From IMG/VR virus record IMGVR_UViG_638341087_000016: a stretch of DNA of 33,462 nt. One strand, written 5' to 3'. This document shows, piece by piece, positions 19,217-32,875 of this stretch. Origin of the DNA: a virus (taxonomy: Duplodnaviria; Heunggongvirae; Uroviricota; Caudoviricetes). The notes below the pieces were generated by a model. The model saw only the letters and a list, made by a program, of their open reading frames with translations, did no database searches and was not told where the DNA came from. Both the position numbers and the translations under genes were made by a program. Each line of letters begins with the position of its first letter. The stretch's first letter is position 1.

Positions 19217-21028
19217 ATGGCTAAATATTCCGATGAATTAAAAGAAGCGGCCCGCACGCTTTATATGAAAAGCTGGACGCCGAAAGATATTGCGCAGGAA
19301 CTGAATATTCCACCGCGTACAATTTACCACTGGGCTGATGTCGGGAAGTGGGCATCACTGCTGCCTGTTGAATCGGTGGAAAATGTCATCGCCCGCCGTA
19401 TCGACCAGCTCTCCCGCCGCGAGAAAAAAACAGCGCTGGAACTGGAAGAACTGCGCGATCTGATTGCTCACCATGTGAAACTCATGGCGCAGCGCAACAA
19501 ACACGCCGAAAAGCTGGCAGAAATTCAGGCCCAGAAAGCGGCTTATGATGGTGAAGGGTACTGCCTCAGCAGCGCAGGCGGGGAACCAGAGGAAAGAAAG
19601 CGCCGGTATAAGAAAAACGACGTTTCCGGTATTACACCGGAAATGCTCGACACCTGGGCGCGGGAACATCTCTTCGAGTACCAGCTGCACTGCCGCGAAC
19701 ATAAAGGCGAAGACTGGCGCTTCATTCTGAAAAGCCGACAGGTCGGCATGACCTATTATTTCGCCTGGGAGGCATTCGAAGATGCTGTCATTACCGGTGA
19801 TAACCAGGTCTTTTTCTCTGCAAGCCGCTCCCAGTCTGAAATCTTCCGTGAATACATCGTCCAGATCGCCCAGAACCATTTCGGCGTGACGCTGACGGGT
19901 AAAAATATCCGCCTCAGCAACGGCGCAATACTGCGCTTTTTGTCCACGAACGCCAGCACCGCGCAGGGCTTTAACGGCCACCTGTATGGCGATGAGGTTT
20001 TCTGGATCCCGAAATTCACGCGCCTGCACGAAGTTGCCAGCGCAATGGCAACGCATAACAAATACCGGACGACCTACTTTTCGACGCCCAGCGCGAAAAC
20101 GCACCAGGCTTACCCGGTATGGACTGGCGAAGCCTGGCGCGGGGACGACCCGAAACGCAAAGGTGTGGCGTTCCCGACAGAAAGCGAAATGCGCCAGGGT
20201 ATTCTCTGCCCGGACCAGATCTGGCGCTACATCATAACGATGGAAGACGCTATCGAAGGTGGCCTCGGTGCGCTTGTCGATATTGAACGGCTGCGCAACA
20301 AATACAGCCCGACCGCGTTCGCCATGCTCTACATGTGCCAGTTTGTTGACAGTAAGGACGCGGTGTTCAAGTTCTCCGCGCTTGTCGGCTGCGAAGTGGA
20401 CCGGGCCACATGGGGCGACTTTGATCTGACCGCTGCGCGGCCCTTCGGCAATCGCGAAGTATGGGCAGGCTTTGACCCGTCACGATCCGGCGACAACTCC
20501 ACCTTTGTGTTAATCGCGCCCCCCATAGAGGACGGCGAGCGCTTCCGCGTGCTGGCCGTCTGGCAATGGCAGGGCTTTAACTTCAGCTGGCAGGCCGACC
20601 AGATAAAGCAGCTTATGCGCCGCTTTAACATCACTTACATCGGGATCGATACAACCGGCATTGGTAAGGGCGTTTATGACCTGGTCAGCAAGTTTGCACC
20701 GCGCGAAGCCACACCCATTCTTTACAGCGTCGAAAGCAAAAACCGTCTGGTAATGAAGATGATCGACGTTGTCGAGCGTAAGCGCATCGAATGGGCAAAA
20801 GACGCCGTAGACGAAACGAACAAAGAGCGCGTCGAAATTCCGGCCAGCTTTATGGCTATCCGGCGCACGACAACCAACAGCGGCAACGCGCTGACGTTTG
20901 TTGCCGAACGTTCAGACGCGACCGGCCATGCAGATGTTTTCTTCGCTATCTCGCACGCCGTAATTAACGAACCTATCGATCACGAATATGACCGCCCATC
21001 GGGCTGGTACTTTGGGAAAGCAGCATGA
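19217..21028 (+). CDS. P: Terminase large (ATPase) subunit P
   Basis: 603 aa, P2 gpP-like; stop overlaps the Q start in ATGA. Confidence 0.85.
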   Translation: MAKYSDELKEAARTLYMKSWTPKDIAQELNIPPRTIYHWADVGKWASLLPVESVENVIARRIDQLSRREKKTALELEELRDLIAHHVKLMAQRNKHAEKLAEIQAQKAAYDGEGYCLSSAGGEPEERKRRYKKNDVSGITPEMLDTWAREHLFEYQLHCREHKGEDWRFILKSRQVGMTYYFAWEAFEDAVITGDNQVFFSASRSQSEIFREYIVQIAQNHFGVTLTGKNIRLSNGAILRFLSTNASTAQGFNGHLYGDEVFWIPKFTRLHEVASAMATHNKYRTTYFSTPSAKTHQAYPVWTGEAWRGDDPKRKGVAFPTESEMRQGILCPDQIWRYIITMEDAIEGGLGALVDIERLRNKYSPTAFAMLYMCQFVDSKDAVFKFSALVGCEVDRATWGDFDLTAARPFGNREVWAGFDPSRSGDNSTFVLIAPPIEDGERFRVLAVWQWQGFNFSWQADQIKQLMRRFNITYIGIDTTGIGKGVYDLVSKFAPREATPILYSVESKNRLVMKMIDVVERKRIEWAKDAVDETNKERVEIPASFMAIRRTTTNSGNALTFVAERSDATGHADVFFAISHAVINEPIDHEYDRPSGWYFGKAA

Positions 21029-22086
21029 CAAAGAAACAGCGTAATAATAAAAAATTCAGGTCCATGACCGGCAGCAAGGTTGAATCCTTCACGCCAGGGC
21101 GCGGAAGCGTGATCACATTTGGCGAACCCGAACCCATCCTGACGACCGGCACTGATTATCACAATATCTGGTATGACAATGAGTATGACCACTGGCGACT
21201 CCCGATTGATCGCCTGGCGCTGGCCCAGTTGCCGAACCTTAACGGCCAGCACGGTGGGGTACTGTATGCGCGGCGCAATATGGTTGCCGGTGGCTACATC
21301 GGCGGCGGCCTGACGCCTGACCAGGTCGAACAGGCTGTCTTTGATTACCTGCTGTTTGGTGACGTCGCTATCCTGAAAATTCGTAACGTATTCGGGGAAG
21401 TGATCGACCTGCTGCCGCTGCCGTCGCTGTATCTGCGCTGCCGAAAAGACGGGGCGTTTGCTGTTTTGCAGGAAGGGCCAGCACTTATCTATGAACCGGA
21501 AGACATCGTCTTTTTTAAAATGTACGACCCGCGCCAGCAGGTGTACGGCCTGCCTGACTATATCGGCGGCATCCATTCGGTGTTACTCAACAGTGAGGCA
21601 ACCATCTTCCGACGCCGTTACTACAATAATGGGGCACATATGGGCTTTATTCTCTATACCAGCGATCCGAATCTTACGCTGGAAATGGAAAATGAAATCA
21701 AAGAGAAGATCGCCCAGTCCAAAGGGCTGGGTAACTTCCGAAATATGTTTATCAACATCCCGAAGGGCGACCCGGAAGGGGTTAAAATCATGCCAGTGGG
21801 TGAAGTCAGCGCAAAGGATGAATTTGCCAACATCAAAGGGATAACCGCGCAGGATATCTTTACCGCCCACCGTTTCCCCGCTGGCCTGGCGGGTATCATC
21901 CCGACCAACGGCGCGGTAATGGGCAACCCTGAAACCGCCCGCACAACCTATCGCAAGGATGAAGTTATCCCCTTGCAGCGCAAGCTAATGAACGGCGTCA
22001 ATAATGACCCGGAGATCCCCGCACACTTGCACCTGGTTTTTGACGTGGATATCCCGGCAATTGCCACCGAAAAGGGCGAAAAATGA
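21025..22086 (+). CDS. Q: Portal protein Q
   Basis: 353 aa, P2 gpQ-like, downstream of P with an ATGA overlap. Confidence 0.85.
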   Translation: MTKKQRNNKKFRSMTGSKVESFTPGRGSVITFGEPEPILTTGTDYHNIWYDNEYDHWRLPIDRLALAQLPNLNGQHGGVLYARRNMVAGGYIGGGLTPDQVEQAVFDYLLFGDVAILKIRNVFGEVIDLLPLPSLYLRCRKDGAFAVLQEGPALIYEPEDIVFFKMYDPRQQVYGLPDYIGGIHSVLLNSEATIFRRRYYNNGAHMGFILYTSDPNLTLEMENEIKEKIAQSKGLGNFRNMFINIPKGDPEGVKIMPVGEVSAKDEFANIKGITAQDIFTAHRFPAGLAGIIPTNGAVMGNPETARTTYRKDEVIPLQRKLMNGVNNDPEIPAHLHLVFDVDIPAIATEKGEK

Positions 22087-22671: not shown

Positions 22672-25464
22672 TTAATCTGAAAGTTCACCAATATCATCCA
22701 TTGGTTTTTTATCATTAAAAGATAGACGAAGTTTTTGTTCATGTAATGCAGTGATTTTTTTACAACTATCTACAGAAATATAATAAAACGACAAGCCATC
22801 GTTATTAATAAATTCCAAATTAATCCTAATAGACATCAGCGCGTACATCAATGGATTTTCATCCTTGAAATTATACAACCCCTTAACTAAGGAAATATTC
22901 TCATCAGAAATACTTTCAATTTTCAAATCAAATAAATTAGTATTCCGCAGACAGGAAAATACGCTCAAAAAATCCATGTAGTAAAGACCAGGAGACCCCA
23001 AACCCAAAACTCCTTTTGAATCTGTTATTCTCATACCTTTTGAGTAACGGTAAACACTTGCCTCTCCTTTAACCATGTAATGAATTGTTATAAGCTTATC
23101 GGAAGGTAGTTCACTTACATCTTCGATCTCATTTACATCTTTATATTGGCCTTTAATTCCATCAAGCATTTTATGAAGCCAAGCATAGACAAACACTTCA
23201 GCATGATGTGAACTATTCATTGAATAATGCACTTTATCAATTGACTGCAAGACTTCTCTCTTATTAATCAATGAATAGAATGGATTGCAGACAACTGAAT
23301 TTGACACAGGAATAGAATCAATATCTACGAATTTATTAAAATACCCACCTAATGATATTGATACTTTATCTATGTATTTATTAACCAGAACCTTATCAAG
23401 GTCAGAAGAAACAATAGAATTTGCGATTAATTCATTTTTTACAGAAATTATACTTTCAAGATGCTCTGCAACCTCCATCCGATTTGTTTCTTGAGAAGAT
23501 CCTTCATTAATCAACTCTAATAAAGCTGAAAATTCATCACCTTTCAAATATGATATAAGTGATTGCAGTTCATGAGTTGTTATTTTTGTATTTTTAATAA
23601 ACTCTTTTTTATTACGTATAAAAATAGGATTGAGGTTGTTTTTATTAAATAATGTTTGAGTCATTAAAAGGGATACTGCTTTGAAAGCATCGTTATTTAT
23701 TGAAAAGGTTGCAACCTCATAATCAGGTATATCTCTTAAAGTTCTACTTGCATCAAAATCAGGTTCAGATGGGACTGTAAATATAACATCATACACGCCA
23801 CTCTTATAAAAAAGATCTTCTAGGAATGAAGGTGCTAACCATTTCATTAAATTCTGTTTTATTATTCTCAATTCCTCCTGATGCCCATCACTTTTTTCAG
23901 ATAAATAGCACAGCCTAATAATCAGTAAAGTTATAACCTGTCTTACACACGATACCATCTTGTTCTCAATGATACTAAGGGTTTCGCCATCATCAGATGA
24001 CTCTGGATAACGAAATTTCTCAGTCAAGAATCGAGTATTCAGGCTAAATGCCAAATAATTCTTTGACAAGATGTTGTCTCTCACCGTTGACATATATAAA
24101 TCAAAAAAACGATATTCTGGATCACCTAAACTATATTGAGCACGATGTTCCAATGACGGTGATATCAATTTATAAAATTCATCATATTGCTCATTATCAT
24201 AAATATACCTTCCCAAATCCATAATCGATCGAAGAGCATCACACACTATATTATAGTTTTTATACCCACTCACTTCAGAACTAACCTTCATATAAAAAGC
24301 AGCAAAAATTGAATACTCTATATTATTTTTTTTGTTAGTATAACCAAAAGAGTGATTGAGGTTATGTATTACTTTAACTAATTCAGTTTCACTAACTAAT
24401 GTGAAGATAGCTCTTATGCTAAAATCTAACGCTAACTCATTACCACTAAAAAGACTATTTCTTAAGCTAATAACTACTGCATCTTCATACTTACCGTAAT
24501 TCAAGAAGCTTTCAGGAGCTGAACTGAACACCAATCCTTTTTTCAATAGTTTTGTAACATTACTAATTAATAGCTCATCGATCGACGCTCCATCTTGCAC
24601 TTCAATATGAACCGATGAGGTTGATAGTGGATATATAAAGTTAAGATTCACGCGTAAATCAGTACGTACCACTTTCGAAAAACGCTCTAGCTCATTGTTA
24701 ATTTCTTTAAAGCAAATTGGACAAAAATCATTAATAATGACATTTTGATTATTTTGGAAAATATTTAACTTACGTTGTTCTTTATTGATAAAATCGGAAT
24801 CCCACCCATAATGAATATATTCAAAATCATTAATCATGTTTAAAAATTTATTTTCTATAGTTCTTCTACGTTCGTCAATCAATAAATAATCATTTTTAGC
24901 CTTATCAAGCTCAAAAAATAAACGATCAGTTATTATAGTTGGATTCTCAGTAACATTATATAATTTCAGATACATTGAACCATAATTAAAAATAAAGTAT
25001 AACGATACAAAAATGGATATAGCATAAGTAATCATGCCGCCACCACATGAAAGCAATACGATACCACTTAAAAGACTAAAAATAGAATTTAAACTAAACT
25101 TTAAAAAACTAGTTTTCCGCAACAACATCGACTTACAAATATTTTCAAAGCCATGTTCAGAATAATTAGAAACCTGACTAACAAACATTCCCATAAATGT
25201 AATTGATAGTGCAGCAATAGTTCCATGTATGCCTAAAACTCCCGCCCAAACACTAGTAGTCCAATTCAATGGGGAATTATTGAGAAAAGATGGTGTTACA
25301 AGTAAATACTTTACCCCTTCATCAACATATCTAGAGTAGATTACACCGGAAATACCCAACCCGACCAGAATAAAGTAGATCAAGAAGATAATTATAACTT
25401 CCCTATTTATACTTAAAAAACCATTATTAAAAATAATTTTTCTTTCCAAAATCAGACCCCACAT
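22672..25464 (-). CDS. Large membrane-anchored protein of unknown function; candidate single-gene anti-phage cargo
   Basis: 930-aa ORF with ATG start; about four N-terminal hydrophobic helices in residues 20-160 and a roughly 770-aa soluble region; very AT-rich coding sequence; no Walker A or other motif recognised by eye. Confidence 0.8.
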   Translation of the reverse strand: MWGLILERKIIFNNGFLSINREVIIIFLIYFILVGLGISGVIYSRYVDEGVKYLLVTPSFLNNSPLNWTTSVWAGVLGIHGTIAALSITFMGMFVSQVSNYSEHGFENICKSMLLRKTSFLKFSLNSIFSLLSGIVLLSCGGGMITYAISIFVSLYFIFNYGSMYLKLYNVTENPTIITDRLFFELDKAKNDYLLIDERRRTIENKFLNMINDFEYIHYGWDSDFINKEQRKLNIFQNNQNVIINDFCPICFKEINNELERFSKVVRTDLRVNLNFIYPLSTSSVHIEVQDGASIDELLISNVTKLLKKGLVFSSAPESFLNYGKYEDAVVISLRNSLFSGNELALDFSIRAIFTLVSETELVKVIHNLNHSFGYTNKKNNIEYSIFAAFYMKVSSEVSGYKNYNIVCDALRSIMDLGRYIYDNEQYDEFYKLISPSLEHRAQYSLGDPEYRFFDLYMSTVRDNILSKNYLAFSLNTRFLTEKFRYPESSDDGETLSIIENKMVSCVRQVITLLIIRLCYLSEKSDGHQEELRIIKQNLMKWLAPSFLEDLFYKSGVYDVIFTVPSEPDFDASRTLRDIPDYEVATFSINNDAFKAVSLLMTQTLFNKNNLNPIFIRNKKEFIKNTKITTHELQSLISYLKGDEFSALLELINEGSSQETNRMEVAEHLESIISVKNELIANSIVSSDLDKVLVNKYIDKVSISLGGYFNKFVDIDSIPVSNSVVCNPFYSLINKREVLQSIDKVHYSMNSSHHAEVFVYAWLHKMLDGIKGQYKDVNEIEDVSELPSDKLITIHYMVKGEASVYRYSKGMRITDSKGVLGLGSPGLYYMDFLSVFSCLRNTNLFDLKIESISDENISLVKGLYNFKDENPLMYALMSIRINLEFINNDGLSFYYISVDSCKKITALHEQKLRLSFNDKKPMDDIGELSD

Positions 25465-25828: not shown

Positions 25829-28441
25829 TCATTCTTTAGGGTAGCGACCTTCCGCACCCGCCAGCATTTTTTGATATTCCCAGACCGGATCAAACCGCAG
25901 GTGCGTGGCATCAATGCCGTGGTTATCCCGTAAATGTTCCCATAATTTATTCACCGTCCGTGACTCATTAGGTAATTGACGCGTTATCAACTGGCCGCCA
26001 GCACTGGCTTGATAAAATTTCCCGCCAATCTCCAGACGGCTCCCCATTAACAGCGAAACGGCCTGAATCTCTGAAATCTCAACCAAACACAACGCCGCAT
26101 CAGCCAGCAGACTGGCAACCGCAGGGGCAAGCGCTGCCCGCCTGGCTTTATCAGCCACCGATCTGGCCTCGGTTTTTTCCACGGCAGAACGCCAGGCAAC
26201 ATCTAATTCGCTCCCTGGTTCATAAGGTGATCCGCTGTGCCGCCTTTTGAATGGTGCTTCACGTAGTCGCCGTATCAATTTGCGCCGCGTTGGCTGGTCC
26301 ATATTTTCAAAATCGACGATTTCCTCTTCTGATTCTTCTGTAATACCCTCCACACCAGGCGAAAAATCGGTGATTTTTTCGTCTTCCGTAGAGTTATTGA
26401 CAGAACTCCAAGCGTCGCCGGTTGGCGACGGCAAAAGGTCAACCCCCAAACCGGGGCCGCTTTTGGCCCCAGTGACGGTTTTGGATTTGGCTCGAATTTT
26501 CCACTTAACCAGACGGGTGCAAATACGGGAGGCATCCCCCAGACGCGGCGACCAGACCCCGAAAACCTTTTCGGGGATCTCACAATAAGCATTCATTTCA
26601 TCAGCGGGCTGATAGGCCAGACGGACGACATAGTTTTCTCGCGGGATCAAAACACCACCCTGGCGGATGATGTAAGTAGCAAAGCATCCGACATCGGCAG
26701 CGGCGCAAACCGCATCCATTGCAGGATCCACAAGCAATGGCGCACCACGTTTGAAGGTACTGTCAATTTTCTGTCGGGTCGTGATCTGATTACTAAGTTT
26801 GCGCAGCTCGCGGTAAACCGATATGGGCGGCTGTCCGATGGGCTGAAACTGGCGGATACGGTGAAGCGATGCCCAGGCCATTGCATATTTGGCGCTTTCA
26901 TTCAGCGGCTTGCCGCTTTCGTCGTCCAGTTCACCGGCCAGCGCGTGGCCGTCGATATTCTTCGAAATGTATTTAGCGATGTATGCCGTTGCTGACCCTT
27001 TCCGTGGGTCCATTTTTTTTGACTTGAAACGAGCGCCGGTATTGCGGCCCAGCTCGTCGCGGTCTTCCGCAATGAAGTAGGTGCGAAGGATCGCAACCGT
27101 GGCTTTGACTTGCTCTTGTGGCATAAACAGCAACGCGTGCCAGTGTGGTGTCCCATCGTGATGCGGCTCGGCGACACGGAAGCCATAAGGGCGCAAATCT
27201 TCGCGTTTCAGTTTGGCGGTTGCCCGGTTCCACACACGGCATAAATAGCACTGCGCCTGGGCGACGGTGGAATGATTCCATTTGGCGTTATGGTGGCCGG
27301 ATGCAATATTACTGTGATATTTCGACGGGCAAGTGATTGTCAGGAAGATGCCAACATCGCCGCGACTTTGGGCAACAAGCTCAACCCCAGCCATTCGGGC
27401 CATAAGCTCATGGCGACGAATAGCCGGGTTTGACGTGGATTTATTAATCATGTCCTCAAGTGAGGAAACGTTGCCGTCTTCGTCTACCAGTTCATGACTT
27501 TTGAAAAAATCCCGGTTTTTACGGCGCTGTTCCTGCCACTCGATCAGGCTGGAAGCGCTAACGTATGCGTGCGCTTTTTTATTTACCGCGCCAACGGCTC
27601 GCAGCTGGTTTTCGCGCCAGTCACAACGCAGGCGCCAGATTTTGCGCCCCCACCAGTCAGGCGAAGCCATACGCAAAATGGCCGTACATATCCGATCACG
27701 TTCCCACGGCGCATACCATGCAGGCGGCACAATGCGAAGCGCCAGCATTTCGCGGCCCAGATGACAATAAAGCCAGTCCAGTTCTTCGACGTTCATGTCG
27801 GAAACATTCTGTCCCAGGGCTTCGCATTCCGTCCCCAGCATTTCAGCCATGCGGCTGGCGATCTCATTAGCGGCGCTTAGTGCTTCCCGCTTTGTGAAAT
27901 CAGCCAGCCGTTGCCAGCGCCCGAACCAGTACGCGGCCAGTTCGCCGGTGATATCAGGCGAAACACCTTGCCTTGTGCGCACAACATCAAGACGCAGCAA
28001 TGATTTTTTCACTGTCCCCATAAGAAAATCATTGGTGTGTCTGGTTTCACGGTTGACCCGTAACCACTCAATTTTTTTACGCCAGACTTCACGAATGAAG
28101 AACGGCTCTGATAATAAACGTGCTTCGACACCTTCTGGCGTATTGGCCCAGGCTGCCGCCGTGGCTTTAGCGGCTTCCATTTCTTGCCGGATTATATTTT
28201 GATGGGCGGCCAGTGGCAGGCCGCATGGTTCGTACCTGTCCAGCGCCTGGATGAGCGCATCACGGTCACGAACTTCGGCGGGATTGTAACCGGCACGTTT
28301 GAAGATGTGATCGATATGTTTTTTTACGGCAGGATGATGCGCCACCGCCCCAGCAAGCGGGGCGATTTTTTTCGGTTCATAGATGTACGGGCCAACAGCT
28401 GGACGCGGTGCGTTCCAAGGCCATGCGAAAGCGTTAGTCAT
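25829..28441 (-). CDS. A: Replication initiation protein A (rolling-circle nickase)
   Basis: 870 aa containing ATAYIAKYISKNIDG, the active-site tyrosine motif of P2 gpA-type initiators. Confidence 0.85.
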   Translation of the reverse strand: MTNAFAWPWNAPRPAVGPYIYEPKKIAPLAGAVAHHPAVKKHIDHIFKRAGYNPAEVRDRDALIQALDRYEPCGLPLAAHQNIIRQEMEAAKATAAAWANTPEGVEARLLSEPFFIREVWRKKIEWLRVNRETRHTNDFLMGTVKKSLLRLDVVRTRQGVSPDITGELAAYWFGRWQRLADFTKREALSAANEIASRMAEMLGTECEALGQNVSDMNVEELDWLYCHLGREMLALRIVPPAWYAPWERDRICTAILRMASPDWWGRKIWRLRCDWRENQLRAVGAVNKKAHAYVSASSLIEWQEQRRKNRDFFKSHELVDEDGNVSSLEDMINKSTSNPAIRRHELMARMAGVELVAQSRGDVGIFLTITCPSKYHSNIASGHHNAKWNHSTVAQAQCYLCRVWNRATAKLKREDLRPYGFRVAEPHHDGTPHWHALLFMPQEQVKATVAILRTYFIAEDRDELGRNTGARFKSKKMDPRKGSATAYIAKYISKNIDGHALAGELDDESGKPLNESAKYAMAWASLHRIRQFQPIGQPPISVYRELRKLSNQITTRQKIDSTFKRGAPLLVDPAMDAVCAAADVGCFATYIIRQGGVLIPRENYVVRLAYQPADEMNAYCEIPEKVFGVWSPRLGDASRICTRLVKWKIRAKSKTVTGAKSGPGLGVDLLPSPTGDAWSSVNNSTEDEKITDFSPGVEGITEESEEEIVDFENMDQPTRRKLIRRLREAPFKRRHSGSPYEPGSELDVAWRSAVEKTEARSVADKARRAALAPAVASLLADAALCLVEISEIQAVSLLMGSRLEIGGKFYQASAGGQLITRQLPNESRTVNKLWEHLRDNHGIDATHLRFDPVWEYQKMLAGAEGRYPKE

Positions 28442-29328
28442 TCACATATGCCCGTAGAAGTCGCAACCTTGAGAATACCGATCACCTCACTGGCGGCCCC
28501 TCGGGTAATGGCGTTCGCGCTGACAGAACGGTTAACGCTAATTTCCTGGAAGTTGAAAGAGCGATAAATCTCGCAGGTGGCTGGGGTGTCGCTATTGGAC
28601 AGGATCACCGGCGAACCAGTAAGGCGGTTAATATCCAGCAGAGCGGCAGCTAACTGGCGATGCTCTTTAATCCCAAACGGGGCGGTGTGGTATTGGGTGA
28701 AATTAGCGGTTTCGCTTGTTGGCAGGTATGGCGGATCGCAATAGATAACCGCGTCACTACCAATCATGATTTTTAACGTGCTCTGGAAATCGCAGCACAC
28801 GAAAATAGCTTTCGTGTCGTTAGCTTTTTCAGAGAATAAACGGATTTGTTCTTCCGGGAAGTAAGGCGGGGTTTTGTGACGCCCAAAGGGAACGTTATAT
28901 CCACCCTGTTGGTTGTAGCGTACTACGCCGTTATATCCGTGACGGTTCAGGTAAAGAAATTGTGCTGCACGAAGAATCTTGCCCGCGTCCGGCCCATCTT
29001 CAAACACACTGCGCAATGACAGTAGGTCACGGGCGCGGGCGTTGAAATCATCGCGGATCCACTTATAGCCGTCTTTATCGCCGTACACTTTAAACAGTGG
29101 GCGAGCAGCGTCGATCACCGCATCAGGCCAGCGGGTTATCTGGCGATACAGGTTAATTAAATCTGGGTTGATATCACCCAGGATATAACGGCGATATTCA
29201 GTATTGAGGAAAACAGAAGCACCGCCGACAAACGGTTCCACCAGGCAATCGGCTTTCGGCAGAATCGGCAGCAAATCAGGCATAACGCGGCCTTTACCAC
29301 CGGGCCATTTAACGAGAGATCGAATCAT
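28438..29328 (-). CDS. dam: DNA adenine methyltransferase (Dam-like)
   Basis: 296 aa with KWPGGK near the N-terminus and a DPPY catalytic motif; stop overlaps the A start in ATGA. Confidence 0.85.
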   Translation of the reverse strand: MIRSLVKWPGGKGRVMPDLLPILPKADCLVEPFVGGASVFLNTEYRRYILGDINPDLINLYRQITRWPDAVIDAARPLFKVYGDKDGYKWIRDDFNARARDLLSLRSVFEDGPDAGKILRAAQFLYLNRHGYNGVVRYNQQGGYNVPFGRHKTPPYFPEEQIRLFSEKANDTKAIFVCCDFQSTLKIMIGSDAVIYCDPPYLPTSETANFTQYHTAPFGIKEHRQLAAALLDINRLTGSPVILSNSDTPATCEIYRSFNFQEISVNRSVSANAITRGAASEVIGILKVATSTGICE

Positions 29329-29398
29329 TTTTACTTTCTCCAGGGTGCAAGAAGCCCGACGCGTTAGCGCCTGTTTCTTTTTTGTGGGTAGTTAGTTG

Positions 29399-29788
29399 TT
29401 AATTTACTGCGTTATCTGGCGCGGGTGGTTTGTCGCGTATCGCCTGAATTTCGGCGCGTGGTGCGGCGTAGTCCTCAAATTCCCACGGCATTGATGCTGC
29501 AAATTCGGAAAGGCGCTTAATGCCCATCAAAAGGCACGTTTGCTCCTTTTCGGTTAGATTTTCGTAAGTACAACCCAGCTGTTTGGCGGTCAGCTTCGGC
29601 ATTCCGGCTATGTATCTGGACGCATCGTTTGCCAGGATGAAAATCACCTTTTTACAGGCATCATCCAGGCGGTTAAAACGGGTTGCAGTGTCGTTCACGC
29701 GTGAGACGTTCAAACTTGCTTGCAGTCGAGCCCGTTGCTCTAAGAACTGGCGACGGCCTGGCTGTTGTCCTGTCTTATCCATCAACAT
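29399..29788 (-). CDS. Hypothetical early-region protein
   Basis: ORF in the early operon; start placed at ATG 29786-29788, 5 nt downstream of GGGGAGG. Confidence 0.45.
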   Translation of the reverse strand: MLMDKTGQQPGRRQFLEQRARLQASLNVSRVNDTATRFNRLDDACKKVIFILANDASRYIAGMPKLTAKQLGCTYENLTEKEQTCLLMGIKRLSEFAASMPWEFEDYAAPRAEIQAIRDKPPAPDNAVN

Positions 29789-29803
29789 AACCACCTCCCC
29801 GAA

Positions 29804-30025
29804 CTACGCAAAGATGCCCATTAAGCGGGAAAACCAGCGGCGCTTATTACGCGGGCGCGACATAAACGGTACACGGCAGTTTTTAACAAATTGAACATCT
29901 GCCGCTTTAGGCTGGAAGAACCGCCCGTCCGGGGTTTCAATCCAGCCGCGTTGATGCTGACGGTGGGTGATCTGCTGGCCGTGGGTGAGCAGGCTGGCGA
30001 GTGAAGGGCACTGTGTTAAGTCCAT
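29804..30025 (-). CDS. Hypothetical small early-region protein
   Basis: Start placed at ATG 30023-30025 with GGAG 6 nt upstream; 73 aa. Confidence 0.35.
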   Translation of the reverse strand: MDLTQCPSLASLLTHGQQITHRQHQRGWIETPDGRFFQPKAADVQFVKNCRVPFMSRPRNKRRWFSRLMGIFA

Positions 30026-30163
30026 GTTGATCTCCGTCATATTGAAAAGATGCCGGGATATAACCCCACGCCCGGCACGTGTTTCCTGTGATAACATCGC
30101 TATGCCTGTGTAACTTTGAGCAGTGAATCAGGCATAACAATCACCAACACAGAAGGAGTTGTA

Positions 30164-30643
30164 ATGAAATTCAATGTGTTTTTTAAAAAAGACCACGGAT
30201 CACACTGGGTACTTTCCGATGGTTCCCCCCTCTTTGAAAGTCCACTATTTGAAACAAGACCTAAAGCCATTGATGACCTTGAGAACTTTGTAGGCCTTAT
30301 GGAATCGCCAATTTTTATTAAGGCTGGTGACGATATTAATTCTGGCGATACAGAAAACTGTCCATCTGTAGTTATTTCTTTAAAACAGCATGAATCGCTA
30401 TGGGGCTGGGAGTTATTTATCTCAAAAAATGGACAACTGTCTAAAGTTACCGAAAGTTCAGGTAATGGCTTTGACTCATTAGAATTAGCAAAGCAAAGTG
30501 CCCAGTTTTTTATTAATGCCATTATCGACGCTCCTATTCTGGATCAAGCCGATGTCGCTATCCCCGGTATGCACTTCTCAAAATCTTTCGAGGAAACGCA
30601 CCACATTGGTGACATTCACCCATCCAGTAAATGGTTCAAATAA
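30164..30643 (+). CDS. Tandem YegP-like (DUF1508-like) protein, AT-rich moron
   Basis: ATG at 30164 preceded by AGGAG; two repeats matching the YegP pattern as I recall it; opposite strand to the surrounding early operon. Confidence 0.45.
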   Translation: MKFNVFFKKDHGSHWVLSDGSPLFESPLFETRPKAIDDLENFVGLMESPIFIKAGDDINSGDTENCPSVVISLKQHESLWGWELFISKNGQLSKVTESSGNGFDSLELAKQSAQFFINAIIDAPILDQADVAIPGMHFSKSFEETHHIGDIHPSSKWFK

Positions 30644-30647
30644 TCCA

Positions 30648-30995
30648 TCACTGCGGCGTTATCGTTTTTCTTGTGCGAGGTGGAACATCTCGCACGGTTT
30701 CTTCATCAACCATCAACTCATAAATTCTGATGCTGTTATCACCGTTTGATACGTCATCAAATACCTGAAAAAGAAAACTCATGAACTGCTCATAAGTGAC
30801 GCTGGGTTCAACATACCCACCAGTAACCTCAATTAACGGTGTTAGCCCTGAATTATCTGCTAAAGAAACGCAGTCCAACTTATCCAAACGGAAAAAGTAA
30901 TTACCGCAAGGCGTTCTTTTGTCCTTAATCCGTATAAATACATTTGATAACGCTGTATGACTATCTGAGAGCTTAAAGATTTTTGCCGTGTCCAT
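30648..30995 (-). CDS. Hypothetical protein, AT-rich, immediately downstream of cox
   Basis: 115-aa ORF convergent with the YegP-like gene; no recognisable motif. Confidence 0.45.
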   Translation of the reverse strand: MDTAKIFKLSDSHTALSNVFIRIKDKRTPCGNYFFRLDKLDCVSLADNSGLTPLIEVTGGYVEPSVTYEQFMSFLFQVFDDVSNGDNSIRIYELMVDEETVRDVPPRTRKTITPQ

Positions 30996-31017
30996 TTTAT
31001 TCAGCCCTGTAAGTTGC

Positions 31018-31293
31018 TTATGATGGATTGCCCAGACCCAACCACATTAACCACCCTTCCCTAATTTCCTTGGGACGACTCTCATACGCCATTTTCATTC
31101 CGTTGTTCCAGGCTGGGAGGTAGACCCAGTACTCACCTGCCCGCCCTGAAGTTGATTGCGGATCAGTCATCTCAACTACGGGTAGCTTTCCTTTTTCAAT
31201 CATTCCCCTTACTGCTGCCGGTGTTTTGCCGATCAGTTTTGCAAACTCCTGGTACGGGACAGCATCACTAATACTGACAACTTGTTTGCTCAT
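31018..31293 (-). CDS. cox: Cox (excisionase / early repressor of Pc)
   Basis: 91 aa closely matching P2 Cox (MSKQV...PYQEFAKLIGK...GRAGEYWVYLPAWNNG...WLMWLGLG); GAGG upstream. Confidence 0.9.
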   Translation of the reverse strand: MSKQVVSISDAVPYQEFAKLIGKTPAAVRGMIEKGKLPVVEMTDPQSTSGRAGEYWVYLPAWNNGMKMAYESRPKEIREGWLMWLGLGNPS

Positions 31294-31416
31294 CTGCTAA
31301 CCTCGTATCTAGATCTAACCAATGGGTTTCAAAGTTCTTTAATGGGCTTTGATGCACATTGACAACATCTAAAACCACATTAGAGAGTTTCGATAATATT
31401 AGAGGATCTTGATAAC
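31294..31416. promoter_or_regulatory. C/cox lysogeny-lysis switch region with divergent promoters and direct-repeat operator candidates
   Basis: Direct repeats AATGGGYTT at 31321-31329 and 31341-31349; consensus TTGACA at 31359-31364 on the plus strand; AGATCT palindrome near 31309-31316. Confidence 0.6.
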
Positions 31417-31716
31417 ATGTCAACGCCCATAAGCGAAAAACTAGCGTTAGTTCGTGAGTCTGAGCGACTAAACCGGAAGCAATTCGCTGAAATAACAGGA
31501 GTTCCTTACAGTTCTCTAACTTATTATGAGAGCGGAAGAACTACGCCCCCCACTGACGTAACAATGAAAATTCTCCAGCACCCCAGATTTAGCAAATACA
31601 CGTTGTGGTTTATGACCGATCAGGTTGCTCCCGAAGCCGGTCAGATAGCACCGGCCCTCGCACACTTTGGGCAAGATGTAACAACATCGCAGCACTCAGA
31701 CCAAAAGATTGGTTAA
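31417..31716 (+). CDS. C: Immunity repressor C
   Basis: 99 aa closely matching P2 C (GVPY..L.YYESGR.TPPTDV...YTLWFMT.Q.APE.GQIAPALAHFGQ); AGAGGA upstream. Confidence 0.9.
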   Translation: MSTPISEKLALVRESERLNRKQFAEITGVPYSSLTYYESGRTTPPTDVTMKILQHPRFSKYTLWFMTDQVAPEAGQIAPALAHFGQDVTTSQHSDQKIG

Positions 31717-31861: not shown

Positions 31862-32875
31862 ATGACAATTAAGAAACTCGATGATGGTCGTTATGAAGTG
31901 GACATCAGACCTGCAGGGCGCAACGGAAAGCGCATCCGCAGGAAATTTGACAAGAAAAGTGAGGCTGTAGCTTTTGAGAAACACACTCAATACAACCATC
32001 ACGATAAAGAATGGTTGGCTAAACCGACAGATAAGCGGCATCTGTCTGAATTAACGAAAGTCTGGTGGGATCTGAAAGGCAAGCATGAAGAACACGGAAA
32101 ATCTAATTTGGGTAAGATTGAAATCTTTACCCGGATCACTGATGACCCTTGCGCGTTCCAGATAACCAAAGCGCTTATTAGCCAGTACAGCATGACTCGC
32201 AGAGGGCAAGGCATAAAACCGACCAGTATTAACCGCGATCTTACCTGCCTGAGTGGTATGTTTACTGCGCTAATTGATGCGGAATTGTTCTTTGGTGAAC
32301 ATCCTTTCAGAGGGATGAAAAAGCTCAAGGAGCAGAAACCAGAAACCGGCTATCTGACGCAGGAAGAAATAACATTGTTGCTTGCCAATCTTGACGGGGA
32401 CAACAAGAAAATCGCGATTCTCTGTTTAAGTACCGGCGCTCGATGGGGTGAGGCCGCGAAACTGAAAGCTGAGAACGTAATACAGAATCGGGTGACGTTC
32501 GTTAAAACAAAGACGAACAAACCGCGTACTGTCCCTATCTCTGAGGAAGTGGCTGTAATGATTGCGGGTAAAGGTTATCTGTTCCCTGATGCCTCATACC
32601 CGAAGTTCAGGCGAACAATGAAAGATGTAAAACCAGATCTACCGGACGGGCAAGCAACTCACGCATTGCGTCACAGTTTTGCTACCCACTTTATGATTAA
32701 CGGCGGGAGTATCATCACCTTGCAGAGAATACTGGGACATTCACGGATAGAGCAGACAATGGTTTATGCGCACTTTGCCCCGGAGTATCTTCAGGATGCT
32801 GTTTCACTCAATCCGCTACGTGGTGGTGTTGACTCCCAGAGTGTCCACACTGTGTCCACACTGTGTCCACAGTAG
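31862..32875 (+). CDS. int: Tyrosine integrase (P2 Int-like)
   Basis: 337 aa with near-identity to P2 Int over long stretches (KKLDDGRYEVDIRP.GRNGKRIRRKFDKKSEAVAFEK; HALRHSFATHFMINGGSIITLQRILGH.RIEQTMVYAHFAPEYLQDA). Confidence 0.95.
   Translation: MTIKKLDDGRYEVDIRPAGRNGKRIRRKFDKKSEAVAFEKHTQYNHHDKEWLAKPTDKRHLSELTKVWWDLKGKHEEHGKSNLGKIEIFTRITDDPCAFQITKALISQYSMTRRGQGIKPTSINRDLTCLSGMFTALIDAELFFGEHPFRGMKKLKEQKPETGYLTQEEITLLLANLDGDNKKIAILCLSTGARWGEAAKLKAENVIQNRVTFVKTKTNKPRTVPISEEVAVMIAGKGYLFPDASYPKFRRTMKDVKPDLPDGQATHALRHSFATHFMINGGSIITLQRILGHSRIEQTMVYAHFAPEYLQDAVSLNPLRGGVDSQSVHTVSTLCPQ
32841..32872 (+). repeat. 11-bp tandem direct repeat (gtgtccacact, about 2.9 copies) at the 3-prime end of int
   Basis: gtgtccacact gtgtccacact gtgtccacag, immediately before the int stop codon. 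Confidence 0.8.

Follow-up and report, generated by a model that had tools for sequence, protein, structure and literature searches.

A co-inherited pair of convergent genes in the early operon of a P2-like prophage: a candidate exclusion protein, its candidate neutraliser, and the antisense slot that they occupy

The 33,462-nucleotide (nt) IMG/VR record IMGVR_UViG_638341087_000016, the whole of which is referred to here as the window, is the right arm of a P2-like prophage that, according to its RefSeq context, is inserted next to yegR and yegS in Escherichia coli. Two small open reading frames (ORFs) in its early region, named here ORF159 and ORF115 after the lengths of their products in amino acids (aa), converge on each other and encode rare, uncharacterised proteins. 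Our analyses have identified these two genes as a co-inherited convergent accessory module and as one instance of a wider slot in the early operons of P2-like phages, in which a conserved promoter and leader, directed against the early genes, precede one of many unrelated small genes. We tentatively propose, as a possibility rather than as an established function, that ORF159 is an exclusion protein expressed in the lysogen and that ORF115 is the cognate early-expressed factor that neutralises it, both of these being candidate roles. The features of the module are as follows.

30051–30077: hairpin 1 (TGCCGGG-N13-CCCGGCA), spanning the −35 region of the ORF159 promoter; kept in 15 lineages
30087–30097, + strand: predicted sigma-70 promoter with the extended −10 element TGTG-a-TAACAT (TG at 30089–30090, hexamer at 30092–30097)
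30102–30135: hairpin 2 (ATGCCTG-N20-CAGGCAT), where the ORF159 mRNA is predicted to begin; 12 base pairs (bp) on the − strand
30136–30152, + strand: CA-rich leader, preceding the Shine-Dalgarno sequence
30153–30158, + strand: Shine-Dalgarno sequence AAGGAG, 5 nt before the ATG; kept in the aligned related loci
30164–30643, + strand: ORF159, 159 codons plus stop, between ORF115 and fil; product acidic (isoelectric point 5.0)
30648–30995, − strand: ORF115, 115 aa, acidic, no recognisable domain; second gene of the early operon after cox, convergent with ORF159
30671–30707, + strand: intrinsic-terminator-like hairpin (12 bp, 6 of them GC) followed by TTTCTTCATC, 28 nt past the ORF159 stop

Neither ORF is a chance frame; both are genuine genes, as is indicated by the families of homologues to which they belong (approximately 20–30 clusters for each ORF, in the Enterobacterales, viz. 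Citrobacter, Kluyvera, Salmonella, Serratia, and Moellerella) and by the purifying selection that acts on both of them (ratio of nonsynonymous to synonymous substitution rates, dN/dS, 0.08–0.20). RefSeq also annotates both coding sequences, as the hypothetical proteins WP_000671519.1 (ORF159) and WP_000379073.1 (ORF115); in PHROGs the two proteins match families of unknown function only (phrog_9021 and phrog_10410), and a literature search on these accessions and PHROG identifiers returned nothing. The stop codons of the two genes lie tail-to-tail at a spacing of 4 bp. An upstream TTG at 30116 is excluded as the start of ORF159, since every homologue begins with MKFNV. The first-pass annotation of this DNA had placed an AT-rich patch between cox and the replication genes, holding a 160-aa gene with its own Shine-Dalgarno sequence that runs antisense to the early transcript and a convergent ORF of 115 aa. 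The patch is confirmed by its GC fraction, which is 0.38–0.43 over positions 30000–31000 against 0.50–0.58 over the replication genes at 27000–30000, and the Shine-Dalgarno sequence, the convergent ORF, and the antisense orientation (the early genes cox, ORF115, fil, orf131, dam, and gpA are all on the − strand) are likewise found as described; the coordinates of the larger gene stand, and its length is corrected to 159 aa.

The distribution of the pair is narrow, and its two members are coupled in most lineages. The block consisting of C, cox, the pair, and fil is present in 19 of 5,426 complete E. coli genomes, no DNA or tblastn match to either gene was found among 50,697 GenBank phage records, and two scans of the GTDB species-representative genomes found no relatives. 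The loci of the ORF159 relatives always lie in a P2- or 186-like early region, between cox or apl and the replication gene, with ORF159 reading against the early genes. A homologue of ORF115 is the convergent partner in 10 of the 13 ORF159 lineages, down to approximately 30% identity in ORF159 (partners were called by an iterative hidden Markov model (HMM) search over 2,140 six-frame ORFs), and the two genes are separated in these lineages by a gap of 4–20 bp or overlap by 4–8 bp. In the neighbourhood of the pair, identity falls to 27–55% for cox, C, and int and the gene order shifts, as in Serratia, where fil lies upstream of the pair.

The manner in which the pair is inherited is seen in a comparison of the window with a Salmonella prophage (locus L003), which is 96–100% identical to it in DNA from dam to int save for two divergent islands. 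One of these comprises the C/operator immunity region (44–61% identical; window positions 31250–31600, viz. the Pe/Pc operator and the N-terminal part of C), the prophages of the window and of L003 probably representing one phage in two heteroimmune forms. The other comprises the coding sequences of ORF159 and ORF115 (49–87% identical), with the divergence starting just inside ORF159, past the promoter and leader, and stopping at the ORF115 start. Synonymous divergence (dS) is 0.7–1.5, i.e., saturated, in the pair and 0–0.1 in fil and orf131. The difference between the two pairs is an allelic replacement by recombination and not the outcome of fast local evolution, and the occurrence of a diverged allele pair within so nearly identical a backbone indicates that the module is exchanged as a cassette. 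The earlier reading of an accessory gene is thus upheld, the patch being accessory and horizontally exchanged on the evidence of the Salmonella comparison, of the small number of E. coli genomes that carry it, and of the lack of a match among the GenBank phage records.

ORF159 looks like an independent transcription unit that is antisense to the early operon. When the 125 nt preceding ORF159 are aligned for 15 lineages, picked solely for homology of the protein and not by motif, the extended −10 pattern TGTGnTAnnnT is invariant in all 15 (T, G, T−12, A−11, and T−7); the extended −10 motif occurs once in the window, and the ORF159 transcription start is predicted near 30102–30105. The two hairpins flanking this element covary: compensatory changes are present in hairpin 1 (GCCGAG/CTCGGC, ACCGAT/ATCGGA, and GCCGTG/AACGGC), 92% of the cells in the two helices are paired, against 25–44% when the partner columns are slid, and changes on both sides are found in 7 of the 14 hairpin pairs, including 5 of the 7 in hairpin 2. 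No Rfam family matches the hairpins, a weak mir-5429 match at 31319–31402 being far under the gathering score. On the − strand hairpin 1 is followed by AUCUUUUC and is flagged as terminator-like (fold −15 kcal/mol), and it looks like a predicted terminator of the early transcript just before fil; the − strand fold of 30036–30140, which includes both hairpins, has an energy of −36.7 kcal/mol (z −3.3). A second promoter based on a TTGAnn motif in the loop of hairpin 2 was dropped for want of a −10 at workable spacing, as was a P2 late-promoter element (TGT-N12-ACA), which is in the wrong position.

At the other end of the gene, the terminator-like hairpin (fold −17.9 kcal/mol, z −2.2) sits within the codons of the conserved C-terminal motif ETVRDVPPRT of ORF115, and the same element (GTGCGRG...CTCGCAC with GTTTC(T/A)TCAT) is also present in L003, L009, and L014–L020. 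It lacks a T tract on the − strand and should therefore act on the + strand only. Of the characters by which morons are recognised, ORF159 thus combines a promoter and terminator of its own, as predicted from sequence, with an atypical GC content and a pattern of presence, absence, and replacement. The description of both genes as morons in the first-pass annotation accordingly applies to ORF159, with its promoter, leader, Shine-Dalgarno sequence, and terminator, and does not apply to ORF115, which has the orientation of the early operon after cox and is the partner of ORF159 in the 10 lineages mentioned above. The genes and signals around the module are as follows.

31862–32875, + strand: integrase
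31417–31716, + strand: C repressor
31423–31395, − strand: predicted Pe-like promoter TTGACA-16/17-TAATAT, upstream of cox
31018–31293, − strand: cox, first gene of the early operon, which is read leftwards from the switch region (Pfam Phage_Cox, 5e-43)
29804–30025, − strand: fil, cell-division inhibitor family (Pfam Phage_186_Fil, 4e-12), next early gene downstream of the module
29399–29794, − strand: orf131, 131-aa gene of unknown function between fil and dam (phrog_7428 only)
− strand, between orf131 and gpA in the early operon: dam, Dam-type methylase gene
25829–28441, − strand: gpA, replication gene, after dam in the early operon

ORF115 is predicted to be co-transcribed with cox from the C-repressed early promoter, and the position of ORF159 on the + strand between ORF115 and fil means that early transcripts reaching fil and gpA cross ORF159 in antisense. 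A homologue of P2 gene B was not noticed in this early operon in the Pfam, PHROG, and RefSeq annotation. Elsewhere in the window, an AbiH abortive-infection protein is encoded at the left edge (1–966, + strand; Pfam 2.4e-60, PADLOC AbiH 2e-29). The classic P2 old/tin defence hotspot, which separates gpA from the portal and terminase genes, holds a 930-aa ORF (22672–25464, − strand) that has no Pfam or PADLOC match, is a hypothetical protein in RefSeq, and is a candidate uncharacterised defence gene.

The promoter cassette of ORF159 is found well beyond this module. A search of IMG/VR with a strict pattern (hairpin 1 plus the extended −10; loci L043–L148) identified at least 108 instances, and all 93 of those with recognisable P2 markers lie between gpA and C/int in antisense to the early genes. 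The cassette may precede cox, separate cox from fil, or stand between fil and dam; it is present twice in two loci and once in the window. The 86 callable cargo ORFs, of 35–174 aa, fall into approximately 30 unrelated clusters, of which ORF159 is one. The cassette is also present in isolated phages, viz. the Salmonella phages SEN4 and SEN5 and the Yersinia phages vB_YenM_42.18 and vB_YpM_115/117, and in SEN5 it drives the 60-aa SEN5_34, which is convergent with the early gene SEN5_33. Divergence of the window from both L003 and Citrobacter braakii begins right after the cassette, and from this boundary only we infer recombination at the cassette. The hotspots that have been described in P2 are the gpA-portal, Z/fun, and att-int intervals, with the integrase-primase interval as a minor defence hotspot (PMC13586616), and no description of an antisense early-operon slot was found in the searched literature on P2 hotspots. 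The antisense slot, the covarying leader, and the decoy-like partners considered below appear undescribed in the literature that was searched; for the kind of element concerned, viz. a moron accompanied by a partner for self-immunity and by a mobile promoter cassette, precedents exist.

The sibling modules that share this cassette provide information regarding the nature of the partner proteins. In C. braakii the cassette is preserved as far as the Shine-Dalgarno sequence and an unrelated helical protein of 91 aa (phrog_32592) stands in place of ORF159, while the ORF115 homologue has kept residues 1–112 and gained a new C-terminus of 70 residues. The same 70-residue domain occurs in L048 as a separate 74-aa gene convergent on the same 91-aa cargo, and its joint occurrence with this cargo in both loci indicates that cargo and partner domain move together. 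The domain is homologous to residues 186–230 of the P2-type portal (window portal 21025–22086; BLASTP E 7e-5 in a single comparison), an iterative search started from it recovers dozens of portals, and the PHROG portal profile independently matches the N-terminus of the 214-aa ORF115-type partner of Serratia (E 2.5e-6). The portal-like domain, with the motif HGAHAGNV, is located as follows.

L048, 4064–4288, − strand: portal-like domain as a separate gene
L006, 4001–4552: portal-like domain at residues 113–178
L009, 4501–5145: portal-like domain at residues 14–45

It would make sense for an early-made portal fragment to be a decoy for a portal-binding factor, for which the co-transferred cargo is the obvious candidate. 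Partners with stacked domains are found in Serratia (214 aa), C. braakii (183 aa), and L039 (290 aa); their extra domains gave no Pfam hint, and such stacking fits antidotes better than toxins. Proteins of 141–155 aa with the N-terminal capsid scaffold domain Phage_GPO_N are also encoded in early operons of related prophages (L009, 5632–6057, − strand; L040, 5042–5509, − strand), where a further piece of a structural protein would not be expected.

The cargo of the present module, ORF159, is small and acidic, contains no enzymatic domain, and is YegP-like in its modelled fold, its membership of the Pfam family not being established. The AlphaFold (AF2) model, built on 18 homologues (predicted local distance difference test score, pLDDT, 85; predicted template modelling score 0.80), has two beta-beta-beta-alpha-beta units at residues 1–53 and 68–127, which are joined by a low-confidence linker (predicted strands E and helices H: E2–8, E12–18, E22–25, H32–46, E50–53; E68–76, E79–88, E91–97, H106–121, E125–127). 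These domains of approximately 50 aa, each with a three-stranded antiparallel sheet and a helix, match the solved UPF0339/DUF1508 structures (E. coli YegP, PDB 2K8E; SO_3888, 2K49; HVO_2922, 6Q2Z; NMB1088, 3BID), and the model has two of them in tandem in one chain, as in YegP. Unlike the UPF0339 proteins, the ORF159 repeats have an extra beta strand after the helix and are separated by a linker of 14 residues, the family is restricted to the early regions of P2/186-like prophages, and ORF159 has a conserved C-terminal tail of 35 residues with a D-x-H-P motif that YegP lacks.

The resemblance does not extend to sequence comparisons. The two YegP/DUF1508-like repeats reported by the first-pass annotation thus hold at the level of the modelled fold and not at that of sequence: a DUF1508 HMM search, which it had recommended, gave no match to Pfam PF07411 at E ≤ 1 for ORF159 or for 8 distant members of its family (a genuine YegP, as positive control, scores 4.7e-45), an hhalign comparison of the family with YegP is not significant (probability 0.3%, E 0.2, with a single sequence as the template), the aligned register (beta3 and the start of the helix) being as expected, and between the sequences of the two halves there is no significant resemblance, an equally high score being reached in 69 of 500 shuffles. 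Foldseek gave no significant match for the model in the PDB, missing the UPF0339 resemblance, and PDB sequence searches with the profiles of both families, ORF159 and ORF115, found nothing meaningful. A profile search of 1.84 billion representatives yielded 24 matches for the ORF159 family, two of which (the long proteins P0063 and P0064) are spurious, being cadherin-repeat proteins. Among relatives of 23–34% identity the most conserved features are W15, W80, W82, and D150-x-H152-P153 in the C-terminal tail (approximately residues 128–159), where D150 and P153 are invariant and H152 is nearly so. DUF1508/YegP proteins are described as uncharacterised and YegP as stress-induced (10.1101/2024.11.21.623966; PMC13373217); in tandem they are said to form pseudo-dimers, and they recur in defence-related contexts (10.1101/2024.11.21.623966; PMC12065111; PMC13373217), with DUF1508 domains at the sensor positions of defence proteins (PMC12065111). 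Nucleic-acid binding by ORF159, after the sPC4/Whirly idea (PMC12065111), seems unlikely because its family is mostly acidic (net charge −10 to +2).

Of the two proteins, ORF115 shows the greater conservation (dN 0.14–0.17 against 0.26–0.29 for ORF159). It was rejected as a truncated copy of ORF159, since hhalign found no relation between ORF115 and the ORF159 family. Insertion sequences (IS) have entered the early operon in 8 of the 19 E. coli genomes with this immunity/early block, by three independent events (loci examined: L002 and L042 for the ORF115 sites, and also L041): an IS3 in the ORF115 3' end and terminator hairpin (window position ~30686) in six Shiga toxin-producing E. coli genomes, an IS3 near codon 22 of ORF115 (~30930) in strain RM13322, and an IS1 within orf131 in strain SW071610. 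ORF115 is thus disrupted in 7 of the 19 genomes, by two independent events, and ORF159 is intact in all 19, which excludes for ORF115 the role of an antitoxin that is needed continuously. A type II toxin-antitoxin system is rejected on these grounds, together with the convergent arrangement of the genes and the lack of a match to any toxin or antitoxin family.

Under the proposal that ORF159 is the exclusion protein and ORF115 its neutraliser, the C repressor would shut Pe in the lysogen, and only ORF159 would be made, from its own promoter. It would serve in superinfection exclusion or defence through stoichiometric binding, with related P2-like phages as the most plausible opponents. Upon entry into the lytic cycle Pe would fire, transcription would pass head-on through ORF159 to give a full-length antisense RNA over the ORF159 mRNA, and ORF115, made right after Cox, would neutralise the pre-existing ORF159 in an allele-specific manner, resulting in self-immunity. 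The module would be swapped among phages as a unit, in a general antisense slot with many other cargo and partner pairs. The role of ORF115 is suggested by the sibling modules, because their partners are portal fragments, cargo and partner domain are exchanged together, and partners stack domains; the tolerated loss of ORF115 is consistent with it.

Several observations weigh against this proposal, every functional step of which rests on inference. No ORF115 partner is detectable in L028/L029 (a 186-like phage), L030, and L040, and in C. braakii the ORF115 domain is kept without ORF159; moreover, shared ancestry makes linked genes co-vary, and co-inheritance alone is therefore no proof of interaction. 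The structure model of ORF115 is of low quality (pLDDT 59), and no structural match to it was found. Comparison of both families by HMM and hhalign with all 144 ORFs of the prophage found no similarity, and ORF115 is not a recognisable fragment, as judged by these comparisons, of any protein of its own prophage, so that the decoy logic of the sibling modules is carried over to it by analogy only. Neither protein has a match in Pfam, NCBIfam, or PADLOC (PADLOC-DB 2.0 at E ≤ 1), and the G-U and A-C cells of both hairpins are compatible with the RNA of either strand.

The convergent layout, which would lead to mutually exclusive expression, may also be read with the opposite polarity, ORF115 being a host-takeover or toxic early protein like fil and ORF159 an antitoxin-like immunity protein made in the lysogen, which would neutralise leaky ORF115 or that of a superinfecting relative until the strong antisense collision from Pe silences ORF159 and frees ORF115. 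The placement of ORF115 among early host-directed genes (cox, ORF115, and fil), its greater conservation, as is often the case for effectors relative to inhibitors, and the tolerance of its loss by IS insertion while ORF159 stays intact are in keeping with such a polarity. We nevertheless consider it unlikely, since the portal fragments of the sibling modules suit decoys and not toxins in a phage that needs its own portal, the partner proteins stack several domains, the C. braakii lineage has the ORF115 domain without ORF159, and neither protein matches a toxin or antitoxin family. Less plausible still is functional independence, with ORF159 as a lysogenic-conversion or stress protein and ORF115 as an unrelated early gene, the two being linked by the embedded terminator and a compact insertion. 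The position of the ORF159 terminator within the ORF115 coding sequence, the decoupled cases in both directions, and the description of YegP as a stress-induced, uncharacterised protein (10.1101/2024.11.21.623966; PMC13373217) would accord with independence; against it stand the homologous partner that is retained while cox, C, and int diverge and gene order changes, the replacement of the pair as a unit in an otherwise identical backbone, and the new cargo of C. braakii, which comes with its own partner domain.

It is also conceivable, at a very low probability, that the module acts mainly at the RNA level, with a constitutive promoter opposing Pe over an antisense overlap of approximately 600 nt and braking leaky early transcripts to fil and gpA in lysogens, while the two hairpins terminate or stabilise the cox-ORF115 early RNA and the proteins are secondary. 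The conservation of the cassette with unrelated cargo, always in antisense in the early operon, the terminator-like character of hairpin 1 on the − strand, and the stable − strand fold across both hairpins speak for such a role, but purifying selection acts on both proteins, residues of ORF159 stay invariant among relatives of 23–34% identity, and conserved cargo families are not expected if transcription alone mattered. An effect of this kind is compatible with the exclusion and neutraliser roles proposed above and is probably part of them.

The P2 morons old, tin, and fun(Z) resemble the ORF159 module in being accessory, atypical in composition, and variably present in P2-type prophages, and the presumption for such P2 accessory genes is that the repressed prophage expresses them and that they keep out other phages (PMC9122126; PMC13586616). 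In contrast to them, the ORF159 module lies inside the early operon between cox and fil, in antisense, is inherited together with a partner gene of the early operon, comes with a conserved cassette of promoter and leader, and matches no PADLOC model. The SieB/Esc system of P22, with its sas antisense RNA, combines exclusion with built-in self-immunity, Esc being an internal translation product. BstA with its aba DNA element is likewise an exclusion system with self-immunity (10.1101/2020.07.13.199331). In both systems a prophage factor would also block the lytic cycle of its own prophage and is paired with a cognate escape determinant at lytic entry, with an antisense RNA in P22, whereas the escape determinant proposed here would be a protein in its own right, whose gene lies in the early operon on the other strand; the present proteins have no homology to SieB or BstA, and the resemblance would be one of logic only. 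For the cassette, the closest parallel that has been described is provided by the PeSL promoter/stem-loop cassettes of T4-type phages, which precede highly variable small ORFs without assigned function and are tied to modular ORF replacement (PMC2839356; PMC4122927). The ORF159 cassette shares with them a stem-loop and sigma-70 promoter upstream of unrelated variable ORFs, and differs in its usual single copy per genome, its antisense placement in a temperate-phage operon, and its additional 5'-leader hairpin and CA-rich leader.

A major reservoir of anti-phage genes is provided by the temperate P2-like phages, and attention has been given mostly to the gpA-portal and Z/fun hotspots. Even if the proposed mechanism is wrong, the covarying regulatory cassette and the portal-fragment genes of the early operon stay, and these are new with respect to the searched literature. 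A broader view, which we regard as somewhat doubtful, is that the P2-like phages possess a third kind of accessory locus, viz. a portable antisense slot holding dozens of small exclusion proteins made in the lysogen, each with a cognate early antidote that in some cases would be a decoy fragment of the target, such as the portal, of which ORF159 and ORF115 would be one pair with a YegP-fold effector, and that allele-specific competition among related temperate phages may add to the C repressor a further layer of immunity. If the proposal is true, the early operon would hide a further and mechanistically different reservoir of tiny, non-enzymatic proteins, expressed counter to lytic transcription and each with a matched neutraliser, and it would be explained how prophages can carry weapons aimed at their own kind without disabling themselves. 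It would also provide a simple genomic rule for recognising new exclusion and anti-exclusion pairs, viz. the presence of a convergent partner after a conserved promoter cassette, and a first functional handle on the widespread, uncharacterised YegP/DUF1508 fold.

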